The notes under the pieces: generated by a model | The model's input: only the letters and a program-made list of their open reading frames with translations | Told to the model about the DNA's origin: nothing | The model's database searches: none | In this document: positions 25,052 through 64,000 of the stretch, piece by piece | How the letters are laid out: each line of letters begins with the position of its first letter | Position numbering within the stretch: position 1 is the stretch's first letter | Made by a program: the position numbers and the translations under genes | Assembly: GCA_964291405.2 (NCBI GenBank) | Contig: OZ219926.1 | Span: forward strand, 1,408,001 to 1,472,000 | Direction: 5' to 3' | Length of the DNA: 64,000 nt | Source: Thermodesulfobacteriota bacterium | Lineage (GTDB): Bacteria > Desulfobacterota > Binatia > Bin18

Positions 25052-26881
<1,830 letters not shown>

Positions 26882-31002: not shown

Positions 31003-32094
31003 TTATCCGAGTGTATTCACCGCAGATGGGAACGTGTTGATCCCCAGCGCTTCCCGAAAATCCGCGGTGGGTTGCACGACCATCGCATCGACGCTGATGC
31101 CAATCGCATTGGCGACGCGGTCCAGCATGCTGAAGTTGCCGCCGATGATCGACGCCGTCGTGACCGCCTCGGGACCTAATCGCTCGGCAATGGCATCCCG
31201 TGCGGCCGCCAGTTCTGCGGTATCGGGTTTCATCAAAGCACCGGCGAATCTCACGAGTTCGCACCCGTGTTCCACCCCGCTGTCAATACGTGCATCGATC
31301 GCGCCAGCTAACTCGTAGCTTCGATCGTGGGCTTTTCCGCTCTCCCGGAGCAGATGGGCATGCCACGTGGTTCAGTAGAAACACAGGTTCTGTTCCGAAA
31401 CCTTGGTTGCGACGAGTTCTATCTGTGCTCGCGAAAGTGCGTGGTCTGATGTGGCGTGAAAATTGAGCAAATGCTCAGCTCCGAAATACTGTTGACTGAC
31501 CAGGTTAATCACGCGGCGGGCTTCATCCGGGACGAGGCTCACGGCGCGAAAAATATTCCCCGCCGGACTTTCTCCATATAACGATTCGGCTAATGCGCCA
31601 CCTGCCGGAGCGCTGGGGACACTCGCGGTAAAGAATCCCTCATCGACGGCTTCGGCGGGGCGTTCGAAAGAGGGGAGCGTATCGTCGGCGAGCTCCGGTA
31701 ATTTTCGGGGTGGTATGCCAAGACCGCGGGCAAAGACGTCAAGATTGGAGAGTCGCGACACCAGCGAGACGATTTCAACATACGCGCCCTCGCTCACACC
31801 CTGGGCTTGGATGTTCTGGCAAAACTTGCGATCGATGTTTTGCGAATCAACCGCCACCGCCCGTGCCAATCGCACTGCCGCGTCAGGGAGTTTGGCCTGG
31901 GCGACCAGCTTCTCATCGTCGACCGATTCTTGTAAGCCCTGTTCGCATTGAGCGATACGCGCAGTGGCGGCAATGGCGGTTCTCTGTGCGGCGGTACCCC
32001 ACGTACCGCCGCGAGCATAGGACTGCATTTCGTCGACATGTAGGGTTTCAACCGTAGGAGAAACGGGGTAGCGCGAATCTGCGTAAAGCGGCAT
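31003..32094 (-). CDS. AhpD-related probable selenoprotein (363 aa; Sec at TGA 31372-31374; CFYU motif)
   Basis: 240-aa ORF ends LSRAQIELVATKVSEQNLCFY-TGA; the frame continues without stops (TTWHAHLLRESG...) into the 90-aa ORF to TAA at 31003; SECIS-like hairpin follows the TGA. Confidence 0.82.
31326..31371 (-). promoter_or_regulatory. Putative bacterial SECIS element
   Basis: mRNA after UGA: lower stem CGUGG/CCACG, upper stem UCUGCUC/GAGCGGA, loop CGGGA beginning 24 nt after the UGA. Confidence 0.65.
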
Positions 32095-39729: not shown

Positions 39730-40014
39730 TTAAACCATCGGTTGTCCCTCTAACTCCTGTCCGAGAAGCGGCTTACCATACGTCTCCAGCTTACCGTCTA
39801 GGTCAAAGAGATAGTGACAGGAGAGAGTATCGACATCCCGTTTCGCCCGTTGCAGCGGATTCTCTTGAAAATGCGCATGCGCGCCGCTGGCTTCGACCAC
39901 ATCGTTAATCATCTTTTTGCAACGATGAACCGCCAAGGCCAGGTGCATCGCCCAGCGAGCACGATCTTCGAGCGTTGCACTATTGCGTTTTGTACCTGCG
40001 TCACCAACAACCAA
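39730..40014 (-). pseudogene. C-terminal remnant of HsaA-like flavin monooxygenase (acyl-CoA dehydrogenase fold)
   Basis: EASGAHAHFQENPLQRAKRDV....H..FDLD...ETYGK.LLG; the rest of the gene is absent. Confidence 0.7.
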
Positions 40015-46839: not shown

Positions 46840-47262
46840 ATGGCTGGCCGATTAGCCGGAAAAGTAGCAGTGGTGACTGGCGGCAGTTCAGGTATAGGCC
46901 GGGCTACCGCGCAGATTTTTGCCCGTGAAGGGGCCAAGGTTGTTGTGGCCGATGTCGGAGTTGAGGGCGGCGCAGAAACCGTGCGCCTGATTACCGGCTC
47001 GGGTGGAGAAGCAACATTTGTCCAAACCGATGTCGGGCAAATGGAAATCCCGGTGCCGATGACTCAGGCATTAGCCACAGACGGCAAGCTGTATCGGGTC
47101 ACAGCAGACGGCCAACCCCATCTCGTGGCCGCAGGCTTTATCAATCCAACCGGCGTCCTGGTTGTTGATGACGCCGTGTGGGTCTCGGATATCAATGGGG
47201 ACTTTATTGCGGGTAAGCGTGAGCTGCCGGAAGGCTTTGTGGTGAAAGTGCAGGCGCAATAA
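46840..47262 (+). pseudogene. In-frame chimera: SDR N-terminus joined to an unrelated beta-propeller-like C-terminus
   Basis: First about 65 aa match the SDRs at 40843 and 52546 up to QTDV; the remainder (GKLYRVTADG...AAGFINPTGV....VWVSD) is not SDR-like; no YxxxK. Confidence 0.7.
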
Positions 47263-60169: not shown

Positions 60170-61999
60170 CTACTTCACGATCAGCCCCTCGAAATCGCCC
60201 TGCGCGCGCCAGGCGGCGAGCATATCGTAAAAGGGCACTGCGCCGTCGGGATACTGGGTCTCGATGAAGCCATGCCCTTCGTTCTTCCCCTCGCCGTTGT
60301 AATAGCCCGGCGTACAGGTGTTCTGGTACTCGGTCATAAAGGTCGGGCCGGTCACCAGCTTCACCCACTCGTCCTCGTCCTCAAGGGTAGGCTCAATGGA
60401 CTTTGCGTCACGGGCTTCCACTTGACTAATGAGGTGGGCGATGTGCACGGCCTGCCCATTCAGCATATAGGTGAAGTTGGGCGCGAGGCCGGTCTGGGTG
60501 AGCCCCATGTGGAAGCAGTTCGGAAAGCCGTTGCTCAGAAAGCCGTGATAGGTCTTCATGCCGTCCGCCCAGTAATCGCTCAGCGACAGCCCATCGCGGC
60601 CGTACACCTCGAACTCGGCGCGCCGCGTGTACGCCGTCCCGACCTCGAAGCCGGTCGCGTAGATCAGGCAGTCTATTTCGTACTCGACGCCGTCCACGAC
60701 TACCGCGGTCTCGGTGACGCGCTCGACGCCCTTGCCTTTGGTGTCCACCAGCTTCACGTTGGGGCGGTTGAAGGTCGGCAGGTATTCGTCGTTAAAGGTC
60801 GGGCGCTTGCACCACTGGCCGTACCAGGGTTTGAGTGCCTCCGCGGTCTCAGGGTCGGTGACGGTCGAGGACACGCGCGCCCGAATCTCGTTCATCTTCT
60901 GGTAGTCGGCGATCTCCGACATGATCGCCATGCCTTCGTCGGAAAGATTAGAATCTTCCTTACCCGTGAGCAGTTCGGAAAGTTTCTTGAACAGGCTGGT
61001 CCACTTGTCGCCGACGAGGTCTTCCTCAACCGGAATCCCGGCCAGAATAGAGCAGAAGTTGGTGTTGCGGTAGTCCTGCCAGCCGGGCTTCAGCGTCCGT
61101 ACCCATTCCGGGTCGGTCGGCTTGTTGCCGCGTTCGTCCACCGAGGAGGGCGTGCGCTGGAACACGTAGAGCTGCTTGGCATGCTCGCCCAGGTGGGGTA
61201 CGGACTGGATCGCGGTGGCTCCGGTGCCGATGATACCCACACGCTTGTCTTTGAGTTTGTGCATGCCGCCGGTCGTATCTCCACCGGTGTAGTCGTAGTC
61301 CCAGCGGCTGGTGTGGAAGGTATGCCCTTTGAACTTTTCGATACCTGGAATCGCCGGTAGCTTGGGCCGGTTCAGGGGCCCGCTCGACATGATCACAAAG
61401 CGCGCCCGGAAGACATCGTCGCGGTCGGTGGTAATCGTCCAGTGCCCGTCCTCGTCGCTCCAGCGCGCCTCCCTGACCTGGGTCTGGAAGCAGGCCCGCT
61501 CGTAAAGGTTGAAGTGCTTGCCGATCCGCTGGGCGTGCTCAAAGATCTCCGGCGCAAAGGAGTATTTTTCCTTGGGCATATAGCCGGTCTCTTCGAGCAG
61601 GGGCAGATAGACATAGGATTCGATGTCACACTGCGCCCCAGGGTAGCGGTTCCAATACCAGGTCCCGCCGAAGTCTCCGGCCTTCTCGATGATGCGGATA
61701 TTGGTGACCCCTTCCTTCTGCAGTCGCGCTGCCGCAAGCAGGCCACCAAAGCCGCCGCCAATAATCACCGCGTCGAGTTCTTCTTGCAGCGCGGGGCGGG
61801 TGAAGCCCGGCTCCACATAGGGGTCGGTGTTATAGTGTTCGTGCTGGCCGGTGATTTCCTGATACTGATTGTTGCCGTCCGTGCGCAAACGCTTGGTCCG
61901 CTCCTCGGCGTACTTCTGACGCAGGTCAGCCGGGTCAAAGCCCAGTTCTTCGGGAGTTGGAATGCCGGTCGGTTGGGATGTCTCTACCGCCTCATTCAT
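60170..61999 (-). CDS. Type I Baeyer-Villiger monooxygenase
   Basis: Same motifs and same 609-aa length as 25052-26881. Confidence 0.95.
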
Positions 62000-62191
62000 C
62001 TGTCAGCCCTCCTTATTGTCTCCTCGTTGGAGCGTTTCAATTTCTTCGTTAGCGCGGAGTTTGGCATATTGATAAAATTTTGACAATACAAACCCCACAA
62101 GCTGTGTTGATTCCCCCTCGCAACTTCGCTACTGGAGTCCTACTCGATAGCGAAGCTTACGAGAATTTTCGCTGAGTAAAGGAGCAACGCT

Positions 62192-62773
62192 ATGTGTGCA
62201 ATGAAACGCCTCACCCGTGAGGAACTCCCGCCCGACTTGACCGCGCTGTACGACGAGTGTATGCGCGAGGCCGGGGACGCGCGGTTTGTCGCGGCTGGCG
62301 CCAACGCACCCGAACTGCTCGATTGGTACTTCAACAGCTTCTACAAGCGGGTGTTCTACGAGGGCCGCGTCGATGTGCGCACCAAGGAGCTGCTCCGCCT
62401 CAAACTCTCCAAGACCCACGGCTGCTTTTTATGAAACAGGGTCAACACCGTCTCGGCGAGACGGGCCGGCCTGACCACGGAACAGATTGATGCGCTTCCG
62501 GACGATATCGACAACGAGGTGTTTTCGCCACGCGACCGGGCGGTACTCAAGCTGTGCGAGCAGATGGTGCTCACCAACCTCCACGGGTATATGACCGAGG
62601 AGCTGCATCACGAACTGGCCGCGCATTTCAGCGATGGAGAGATCTTCGAGCTCGGGGTGACGATGGCCGTGCTGTGCGGGTTTGCGAAGTTCCTCTTTTG
62701 CTTTGATTTGGCGGACCGCGAAACCACATGTCCGATCCACCGCCCCGCCGAAGAAATGCGGAGCAGTCTGTGA
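62192..62773 (+). CDS. CMD/AhpD-family probable selenoprotein (193 aa; Sec at TGA 62432-62434; CFLU motif)
   Basis: AAGGAG RBS; ...RVDVRTKELLRLKLSKTHGCFL-TGA-NRVNTVSARRAGLTTEQIDAL...FSPRDRAVLKLCEQM...LAAHFSDGEIFELG in one frame; SECIS-like hairpin after the TGA. Confidence 0.85.
62435..62476 (+). promoter_or_regulatory. Putative bacterial SECIS element
   Basis: Upper stem CCGTCTC/GAGACGG with loop GGC beginning 20 nt after the TGA; lower stem GGTCA/TGACC. Confidence 0.7.
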
Positions 62774-62835
62774 TCGATAGGGAAGGAGAGTTGTGACAGC
62801 CTCCCATTAGAAGCCCACACGAGCGAGGAGAGGAT

Positions 62836-63246
62836 ATGACAAAACAAGAGGCGATCGACACGGTGAACAAGTTTATGGGCCTCCTCCTGACGGACTTCCC
62901 CGAGTGCACCAAGCTGCTGGCCGACGATTTCGCATGGGAGAACTTTCTGCCGTCCCATATCCCTTTTGGCGGCCGCTACGAGGGTACGGCGGGGTTGCAA
63001 AAATATCTGGCGCAACTGGCAGAGACCTGGGTGATCGGCGAAGTCGTCTTCCACGATTTTATTTTCGACCCGGAGACGCGCAGGATGGCGGCGCCCGGCG
63101 TAGAAAAAAACGGCCAATCGGTCGTAACGGGGCGCGCCTGCGATATGGCGTTCGTTTGGGAATTCCGATTCGCGGAGGATGGCAAGCTCTCCTATCTGCG
63201 AGAATACAACGACACGGCTGCGATTGGTGGAACGTTCGATAGCTAG
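62836..63246 (+). CDS. NTF2/SnoaL-like protein
   Basis: LLADDFAW...IPFGGRYEG...DGKLSYLREYNDTAA; RBS GAGGA. Confidence 0.85.
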   Translation: MTKQEAIDTVNKFMGLLLTDFPECTKLLADDFAWENFLPSHIPFGGRYEGTAGLQKYLAQLAETWVIGEVVFHDFIFDPETRRMAAPGVEKNGQSVVTGRACDMAFVWEFRFAEDGKLSYLREYNDTAAIGGTFDS

Positions 63247-63302
63247 CCGGACGCTTGCATGCGTGCTGGTTACTCAGAGCATTTGTAGCGGGGAATCCCA
63301 GC

Positions 63303-63953
63303 GTGAAATCAGACAGTGGACAATTGCAGACCGAATTGGCCACCCGAGGGCTTGAGCCGGGCGAGGCGGTCGGGGTCCGGCACCTGATTGAGGCCGCTGC
63401 GGATCGCGTCTGGCAGGTGATCTCTCAACCCGGTCAACTTCCCCGCTATCATCCCTTCTGTCAGGCAACCACGGTGCTCAAATGGCCCGGGGTTGGGGCA
63501 AAGGACACGGTCTCGTACTACAGTGGCGTGCATTACGAGCGCGATTTTGTGAGGTGGATCGAGGGGGTGGGATTTGACATTGAAGTCGGACCGCCCTCAC
63601 GCAAGACGGCCCGTGTGGAGTGGCGCATCACGGCGCAGGGTGAGCGGCAGAGCGAGTTGGCCATTACCGTGATTCCCTACCTGAAAGCGGACTTGTCCGC
63701 CCCTCGGAAGCGGGCCTATCAGCAACGGTTGTTTGGCGACACCATCGCCCAGTACCTCGACAGCGTCGTGCGCGGGGTCGGGTATGTGGCCGCCACGGGG
63801 CAGGCCGTGCAAAAAAATCAGTTCGGTTCGCATCCCCTGTACTCGGATAAGCAGCGCCCCCCAGGCGCCGCTTCCCCGCTGCGCTACGGCTCTGTTATAC
63901 TCGGCCAGTCTCAAGAACGACCAGTGTTGATGTACGGAGGACTATATATATGA
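63303..63953 (+). CDS. SRPBCC/polyketide cyclase-like protein (start uncertain)
   Basis: IEAAADRVWQVIS.PG.L...HPFC...GVGAKD START-like N-terminus. Confidence 0.65.
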   Translation: MKSDSGQLQTELATRGLEPGEAVGVRHLIEAAADRVWQVISQPGQLPRYHPFCQATTVLKWPGVGAKDTVSYYSGVHYERDFVRWIEGVGFDIEVGPPSRKTARVEWRITAQGERQSELAITVIPYLKADLSAPRKRAYQQRLFGDTIAQYLDSVVRGVGYVAATGQAVQKNQFGSHPLYSDKQRPPGAASPLRYGSVILGQSQERPVLMYGGLYI

Positions 63954-64000
63954 GTGAGACGCAGGAGAAGCCCCTGATTGGCAGCATGAATGGTCTCTCG
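63950..64000 (+). CDS. Start of a further gene, 3'-truncated by window edge
   Basis: GGAGGA RBS and ATG overlapping the previous stop; MSETQEKPLIGSMNGLS... Confidence 0.5.
   Translation, partial: MSETQEKPLIGSMNGLS

Follow-up and report, generated by a model that had tools for sequence, protein, structure and literature searches.

Two short open reading frames in a Binatia genome most likely form one gene for an AhpD/CMD-type redox protein with selenocysteine at an internal TGA

Does an in-frame TGA between two short open reading frames (ORFs) end a gene, or does it encode selenocysteine (Sec)? This question is raised by a locus in a Thermodesulfobacteriota bacterium (GTDB lineage Bacteria; Desulfobacterota; Binatia; Bin18), which we studied in a stretch of 64,000 nucleotides (assembly GCA_964291405.2, contig OZ219926.1, positions 1,408,001 to 1,472,000 of the forward strand); the whole stretch is called the window below, and positions are counted from its first letter. 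One ORF (62192..62434, plus strand) encodes 80 aa with the C-terminus ...SKTHGCFL and stops at a TGA at 62432-62434. The other (62519..62773, plus strand) starts with GTG, encodes 84 aa and lies in the same frame. When the TGA is read through, the two become a 193-aa protein with the motif C78-F-L-U81-N-R-V-N85. Our analysis indicated that the two ORFs are one gene for a small AhpD/CMD-type redox protein and that the TGA most likely encodes Sec. The features of the gene are:

62192..62773, plus strand: a single coding sequence (CDS) of 193 codons plus stop for an AhpD/CMD-fold protein with C78-F-L-U81 (read-through translation, Pfam CMD, AlphaFold model, Foldseek)
62178..62184, plus strand: a Shine-Dalgarno-like AAAGGAG, 7 nt ahead of the ATG (read from the sequence)
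62432..62434, plus strand: the in-frame TGA, proposed Sec codon for U81 (Cys in homologues, TGA in related loci)

The original prediction, made from the DNA letters and an ORF list, held that both ORFs shared a frame with one TGA between them and that the bridging codons read as normal CMD sequence. Both ORFs and the read-through translation bore out the first statement, and Pfam bore out the second: the CMD domain (PF02627) covered residues 43-121, across the TGA, scoring 45.5 bits where the gathering threshold is 23, and the bridging stretch ARRAGLTTEQIDAL (residues 89-102) lies between the TGA and the GTG of the 84-aa ORF. The true stop of the 193-aa CDS is the TGA at 62771-62773. Of the Pfam-supported ORFs in the window, 16 of 47 end with TGA as a normal terminator, so the internal TGA is not explained by a reassigned genetic code. 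A tblastn search of the window for paralogues of the AhpD-like protein gave only weak chance matches, and a promoter and terminator scan of 61900-64000 gave nothing informative.

We found that the TGA corresponds to a conserved Cys in distant homologues. A database search at similar protein length returned 89 full-length homologues, all at 57% identity or less, and their alignment had the consensus HGCAFCN. In 81 of them Cys was present at positions 78 and 81, so that the second Cys of CxxC aligned with the TGA column; the others were seven members of a divergent V..P subgroup and one chimera (P0090). The latter, a database protein of 128 aa, arose either from a natural deletion that fused two genes or as an artefact of assembly. 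A search for short proteins also returned 89 entries, with identities up to 96%. More than half of these pieces (49, at 59-91% identity) ended in G-C-x-x, one codon before the TGA position, and most of the remaining ones were C-terminal, with starts at residues 84, 94, 99, 102, 106, 110, 118, 125 and 134. Because no full-length homologue exceeded 57% identity and the short pieces were split, every closer relative (>57%) is broken off at this one codon. Genomes of species representatives were scanned once, which gave 20 related loci (L001-L020), listed here with protein identity to the window and the codon at the site:

Candidatus Binatia / Binatota metagenome-assembled genomes (MAGs): 13 loci, 90-94% identity, TGA
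Actinomycetota (Actinomycetes, Gaiellaceae, Thermoleophilia): 4 loci, 70-74% identity, TGA
Myxococcota: 2 loci, 72% identity, TGA
Ectothiorhodospiraceae (L019): 1 locus, 57% identity, TGC

Thus, the codon was TGA in 19 of the 20 related loci, that is, in all 19 loci of the Sec clade, which span three phyla, and TGC in L019. Whether orthologues carry Cys or a conserved TGA at this site had been posed as a check of the original prediction, and the answer was both, Cys in the distant homologues and TGA in the closer loci. A maximum-likelihood tree was built from 108 rows (the window, the 20 loci and P0003-P0089, without P0090 and P0091), with the Sec column set as a gap and a quick search using Shimodaira-Hasegawa-like approximate likelihood ratio test (SH-aLRT) support without bootstraps. 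The 20 Sec rows formed one clade (SH-aLRT 97) inside the Cys family, a topology consistent with a single Cys/Sec switch.

These data bear directly on the possibility that the locus is a pseudogene, i.e., that a chance nonsense mutation or a sequencing error broke a CxxC AhpD-like gene. Gene callers do split the locus into pieces of 80 aa and at least 84 aa, and the Cys found at the site in most homologues could turn into TGA by a single base change from TGC or TGT. However, all 19 loci of the Sec clade, which cover three phyla and have protein identities of 70-94%, share the TGA, and the 49 short pieces, which are independent cluster representatives, stopped at exactly this codon. The in-frame stop was always TGA, whereas the true terminators of the related genes varied (TGA, TAA or TAG), and both halves were intact and conserved, the downstream half being free of frameshifts and of relaxed constraint. 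We therefore regard the pseudogene explanation as effectively refuted and leave it with practically no probability; a chance nonsense mutation had already been called unlikely in the original prediction.

The fold of the read-through product was examined with an AlphaFold2 model of the whole 193-aa chain, built on 90 aligned sequences. The model was a single all-helical domain with a mean predicted local distance difference test score (pLDDT) of 93.4 and a predicted template modelling score (pTM) of 0.88. G77-C78 lie between helix 62-76 and helix 79-91, which places C78 and U81 at the N-terminal end of a helix, the arrangement seen in CxxC redox proteins; the fold is all-helical and AhpD-like, with C-x-x-C/U opening the second helix of the hairpin. 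A Foldseek search of the PDB returned AhpD-like structures at probability 1.00 and template modelling (TM) scores of 0.6-0.7 (query-normalised), including Bmp8 (6ohj/6ohi), the alkyl hydroperoxide reductase of D. radiodurans (6k40), 2prr, 3c1l and PA0269 (7xw1/2ijc). A profile search of PDB sequences placed PA0269 first (E = 1.5e-17), and Bmp8 was found at E = 2.9e-7.

The model also bears on the suggestion that the gene is genuinely split, with residues 1-80 and a C-terminal piece made as two polypeptides that assemble non-covalently. The in-frame GTG at 62519 could indeed start the 84-aa product. However, residues 82-109, which separate the TGA from this GTG, belong to the CMD domain and are conserved at the protein level, and the active-site helix 79-91 would be cut after its first residues. 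Besides, the predicted starts of the C-terminal pieces differed between genomes, as listed above, which indicates that there is no conserved second start and is the expected output of gene callers where a real second start is lacking. A split gene is accordingly highly improbable, and a single read-through product is the better description of the locus.

If the TGA is read through, a signal for Sec insertion might be expected in the coding region just downstream, and the original prediction had pointed to a SECIS-like (selenocysteine insertion sequence) hairpin, a perfect 7-bp stem with a G-initiated loop beginning 13 nt after the TGA. It was found at the following positions:

62448..62464, plus strand: upper stem-loop, proposed bacterial SECIS (bSECIS), with a 7-bp stem (62448-62454 with 62458-62464) and a GGC loop (62455-62457)
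62439..62476, plus strand: possible lower stem, in the register 62439-62443 with 62468-62472 or 62440-62444 with 62472-62476

In the hairpin CCGTCTC-GGC-GAGACGG the stem starts 13 nt and the loop 20 nt after the TGA. It folds at -9.4 kcal/mol alone and at -17.3 kcal/mol when extended with the lower stem. The bSECIS model, as given in a 2026 review (PMC13188914), has an apical loop of 3-9 nt with G in one of its first two positions, usually followed by G or U, an upper stem of 4-16 bp, a UGA-to-loop distance of 16-37 nt and a minimum free energy of -7.5 kcal/mol or lower. The present hairpin agrees with all four published constraints (GGC loop of 3 nt, 7 bp, spacing of 20 nt, -9.4 kcal/mol). 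As a control for chance, we counted TGA triplets on both strands of the window that precede a comparable perfect stem (Watson-Crick, at least 7 bp, loop of 3-9 nt, G in loop positions 1-2, spacing of 16-37 nt); there were 10 among 1951.

The hairpin was also conserved. The window and the 19 TGA loci provided 16 distinct sequences, in which 98.2% of the stem cells were paired, and three of the seven stem pairs showed compensatory changes on both sides. Pair 18-32 changes from C-G to U-A (7 versus 7 sequences, with two C·A mismatched intermediates), pair 20-30 from U-A to C-G in L016, and pair 22-28 from U-A to G-C in L015; one of the compensatory changes costs an Arg-to-Gln replacement. The covariation score was reached by none of 500 shuffles, a control that is not to be read as a probability, and registers slid by 1-3 columns were paired to 27-51% only. 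Each register of the lower stem was 91.3% paired with one compensatory pair, so a lower stem likely exists, in an ambiguous register. No equivalent hairpin was present in the Cys-encoding locus L019. The predicted hairpin has thus gained a fit to the published model and a record of compensatory change in other genomes.

A further sign of Sec use came from the window itself. The original prediction had counted two CxxU cases in the 64 kb, and a motif scan located the second one:

31005..32094, minus strand: second selenoprotein gene, 363 codons, with C238-F-Y-U241-T-T-W-H and its TGA at 31374..31372 (NF041238)

This case is real: the gene scored 301.5 bits, against a cutoff of 175, with the NCBIfam model NF041238 (AhpD_rel_CFYUT, 'alkylhydroperoxidase-related (seleno)protein'), and in 89 of the 90 relatives from the database the protein ends with C-F-Y. 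It also has a bSECIS-type hairpin of 7 bp with a CGGGA loop, 24 nt after the TGA; a Pfam search with this gene gave nothing at E <= 1e-5. We consider its NF041238 membership a good, independent though indirect sign that the genome uses Sec.

A downstream hairpin can also stimulate plain read-through. The UGA might therefore be recoded by a near-cognate tRNA (Trp or Cys), either through leakiness or with stimulation by the hairpin, and the outcome would not be Sec. This explanation draws on two negative results that also weigh against Sec at U81: ARAGORN found no tRNA of any kind, and hence no tRNA-Sec, in the window and the 20 loci, and none of the 59 window ORFs scanned belonged to a SelA, SelB or SelD Pfam family. 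On the other side, the site is the redox-active Cys position of CxxC, which is the typical place of Sec, the hairpin follows all four bSECIS constraints of the review, including G-G at the loop start, and a member of a curated selenoprotein family is located in the same window. In addition, CxxU AhpD/CMD selenoproteins are an established family, as discussed below. Recoding to a residue other than Sec is, on this balance, quite unlikely.

Several other observations speak against Sec insertion or limit the evidence for it. The 81-nt fold around the site was no more stable than shuffles (z = 0.15), so the case for the hairpin rests on its geometry and its conservation across species, not on energy. 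Rfam, run on the whole window at gathering thresholds, gave 0 matches. Synonymous-site variation in codons 82-92 was modestly low, the 31st lowest of 152 sliding windows, which is not significant; codons V87, S88 and A89 were invariant in all sequences. The sequences compared are kin, and the hairpin is located in conserved coding sequence, so that part of its conservation reflects protein constraint; for these two reasons we take the conservation as supportive and not conclusive. No NCBIfam (seleno)protein model reached its cutoff for the AhpD-like protein. The AhpD-type models were NF053654 (YciW-related), TIGR01926 (peroxidase-related), TIGR04169, NF041047 (GSU3128) and NF041238 (AhpD_rel_CFYUT), and the scores were 40.9 bits against a cutoff of 310 for the best, 35.7 against 81.8 for TIGR01926 and 18.4 against 110 for another.

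A further point concerns the catalytic residues. The relay of AhpD and PA0269 comprises five residues, Glu, Cys, His/Tyr, Cys and His at +4 (PMC3141380). E66, C78 and U81 were present in our protein, and the proton-relay His at +4 was replaced by Asn85; position x2 was Leu80, where most relatives have F or Y. The original prediction had read this Asn (in NRVN) as a hint at non-peroxidase chemistry. The residue was indeed observed, but it is a trait of the whole family and not specific to Sec, since the position was N in 76 and D in 12 of the 90 aligned rows, Cys forms included. Because the relay His is Asn85, AhpD-type chemistry is not simply transferable to this protein. All these points considered, we hold with high confidence that 62192-62773 constitutes a single gene, that its 193-residue product is a thiol-selenol oxidoreductase of the AhpD/CMD fold and that the internal UGA is decoded as Sec. 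We infer insertion of Sec at U81 from the agreement of homology, codon conservation and hairpin.

If so, decoding of the UGA at 62432-62434 as Sec would create the active-site motif C78-x-x-U81, and the stem-loop in the coding region 20 nt downstream would act as the SECIS that brings SelB and its Sec-tRNA(Sec) to the ribosome. If AhpD and PA0269 are a guide, U81 may attack as the nucleophile and C78 may be the resolving residue; in M. tuberculosis AhpD the second Cys is the nucleophile. The U81/C78 pair would then cycle between a selenol/thiol pair and a selenenylsulfide, which would be re-reduced. Function can be suggested at the level of thiol-selenol redox chemistry, and the Binatia gene cluster described below would suit a protein that assists an oxygenase-rich catabolic pathway through redox reactions or the handling of peroxides.

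The neighbourhood of the gene contains the following features:

60170..61999, minus strand: divergent flavin monooxygenase, 609 aa, FMO-like/Pyr_redox_3 (Pfam)
62836..63246, plus strand: gene 2, SnoaL/NTF2-like, 136 aa (Pfam SnoaL_2, E = 1.4e-5, just under the gathering score)
63255..63953, plus strand: gene 3, SRPBCC / polyketide-cyclase-like, whose start may be later than 63255 (Pfam Polyketide_cyc, Polyketide_cyc2)
63950..64000, plus strand: start of gene 4, which runs off the window end and has an ATG that overlaps the TGA of gene 3 (ATGA; read from the sequence)

The AhpD-like gene had been described as heading an apparent operon with NTF2 and SRPBCC proteins, and this arrangement was conserved: the order AhpD-SnoaL-SRPBCC-monooxygenase was kept in 11 of the 13 Binatia loci (L001-L011). 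In these loci the position of gene 4 is occupied by a Baeyer-Villiger-type flavin monooxygenase, about 47% identical to the upstream monooxygenase; the one in L002 has a Pyr_redox_3 domain, and genes for an enoyl-CoA hydratase and a Rieske oxygenase come after it. Of the other two Binatia loci, L012 is a 2.1-kb contig and L013 retains the SnoaL gene only. The SnoaL-like gene adjoins the AhpD gene in L001-L011 and L013, and it is located upstream of the AhpD gene in L016. In the window, as in L002, L003, L004, L007 and L009, some 190 nt separate the upstream monooxygenase from the AhpD gene. In L001, L006, L008, L010 and L011, 2-10 kb are inserted between the divergent monooxygenase and the AhpD gene (the interval 61999-62192 in the window). 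Two genes of these MAG loci, a SnoaL-like gene in L005 (714-1120) and a LysR gene in L010 (5055-5946), were each matched by two overlapping tblastn pieces, which suggests frameshifts or sequencing errors in the MAGs.

Outside Binatia the neighbours were different. The Myxococcota locus L016 has SnoaL genes, an alpha/beta-hydrolase and a glutathione S-transferase (GST) nearby, and L017 has an epoxide hydrolase. Among the Actinomycetota, the Sec-AhpD-like gene of L014 and L015 adjoins genes for a 588-aa double alpha/beta-hydrolase and an amidase. Xanthine-dehydrogenase-type molybdoenzyme genes occur near the gene in L015, L018 and L020, the last of which also has the double hydrolase. Elsewhere in the window, luciferase-like monooxygenases, P450s, GSTs and hydrolases are abundant. 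The common theme across lineages is oxygenase and hydrolase catabolism, not a fixed operon.

This theme and the missing relay His allow a more specific reading, in which the HGC-x-x-U-N-x-x-N clade would be a distinct family of AhpD-fold selenoenzymes acting on a small-molecule intermediate in the oxygenase-hydrolase clusters of Binatia, Actinomycetota and Myxococcota, and not a general adaptor of peroxide defence. The step might be reductive, as in Bmp8, or might process a peroxide, an epoxide or a lactone. We offer this reading tentatively and consider it rather unlikely.

Some further observations concern the window as a whole. Its oxygenase island is unusually dense: 609-aa Baeyer-Villiger-type flavin monooxygenases occur twice (25052-26881, plus strand, and 60170-61999, minus strand), along with six luciferase-like monooxygenases, two P450s, a Rieske oxygenase and three GSTs. 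Two apparent gene remnants were also seen, a 94-aa ORF that matches an acyl-CoA dehydrogenase domain at its C-terminal end only (39733-40014, minus strand) and a 140-aa ORF with only the first ~62 positions of a short-chain dehydrogenase (46840-47262, plus strand).

The locus has consequences for annotation. Public gene calls break the genes of this clade into two 'hypothetical' pieces, and none of the curated NCBIfam models gives the clade a name, so that counts of the selenoproteome are probably too low for Binatia, for Actinomycetota of the Gaiellaceae/Thermoleophilia type and for some Myxococcota. It also illustrates that reading raw sequence can recover a real recoding event. Knowledge of how selenoproteins are made is unchanged. 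What the locus adds is the placing of a Sec redox protein first in a catabolic gene cluster rich in oxygenases, in a lineage that is aerobic and uncultured. It thereby offers a concrete case in which to ask what makes Sec preferable to Cys under such conditions.

Comparison with known systems places the protein among AhpD-like proteins and not among the decarboxylases that gave the CMD domain its name. Gamma-carboxymuconolactone decarboxylase proper (PcaC type) has no C-x-x-C and a distinct three-helix motif (PMC3141380). C-x-x-C/U was present in our protein and in 81 of 89 homologues, and the top structures were AhpD-like, not decarboxylases of the 2q0t type. The mechanistic template is AhpD of M. 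tuberculosis, an adaptor that reduces AhpC, in which CxxC is located on a two-helix hairpin and takes part in a Glu-Cys-x-x-Cys-x-x-x-His proton relay (same source). Our protein differs from it in the absent relay His (Asn85) and in chain topology, and no ahpC was seen beside the AhpD-like gene in the window or in the neighbourhoods of the related loci.

Two further comparisons involve solved structures. Bmp8 is a CMD-fold thiol-dependent reductive dehalogenase (debrominase), and its fold supports chemistry beyond peroxide reduction. It was the top Foldseek match (6ohi, 6ohj; E = 1.8e-5, TM 0.69-0.70). Unlike Bmp8, to which it is only 16-18% identical, our protein had no halogenase or bmp-type neighbours in the window and the related loci. 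PA0269 of P. aeruginosa (PDB 2ijc, 2o4d, 7xw1), an AhpD-like protein with weak H2O2-reducing activity according to PMC3141380, is the best relative of solved structure by profile, with Foldseek TM scores of 0.78-0.86 when target-normalised. Both proteins have the Glu...C-x-x-C helix hairpin, and E66, C78 and U81 align with Glu36, Cys48 and Cys51 of PA0269. In contrast, PA0269 has Cys and not Sec, its His55 and Tyr50 correspond to Asn85 and Leu80 here, and with ~145 aa it is shorter and without the N-terminal ~60 residues of the AhpD-like protein.

The closest parallels are selenoproteins found in metagenomes. A 2005 Sargasso Sea study lists an 'AhpD-like protein' (COG2128), a 'CMD domain-containing protein' (Pfam02627) and a 'hypothetical protein 1' (PMC1088965), and a 2008 Global Ocean Sampling study lists 'AhpD-like 1' with 299 sequences and 'AhpD-like 2' (pfam02627) with 70 sequences (PMC2398784). 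All of these families appear again in the 2026 review (PMC13188914) and in BSepDB (PMC13326102). The suggestion in the original prediction that two such genes reveal an expanded, under-annotated family of Sec-AhpD enzymes thus needs to be narrowed. The CxxU family has been known since 2005/2008, and under-annotation holds in the narrow sense that no curated NCBIfam model covers the protein and that gene calls are split; the few names shown for the public split pieces were 'hypothetical protein' or 'alkylhydroperoxidase family enzyme'. We found no literature link between Binatia/Binatota and selenoproteins, and the string 'Binat' did not occur in PMC13188914 or PMC13326102.

The AhpD-type (seleno)protein families of NCBIfam share with the protein a distantly related AhpD core and CxxC/U, and the protein is a member of none of them; it is the present clade that the curated models do not cover. 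With the CMD / 'AhpD-like 2' selenoproteins the protein shares PF02627, CxxU with Sec in the second position, the existence of Cys homologues and a bacterial SECIS shortly after the UGA. The clade described here, which is characterised by HGCxxUNxxN, a length of ~190 aa and an occurrence in Binatia, Actinomycetota and Myxococcota, may already be among the sequence sets of the published papers on AhpD-like proteins.

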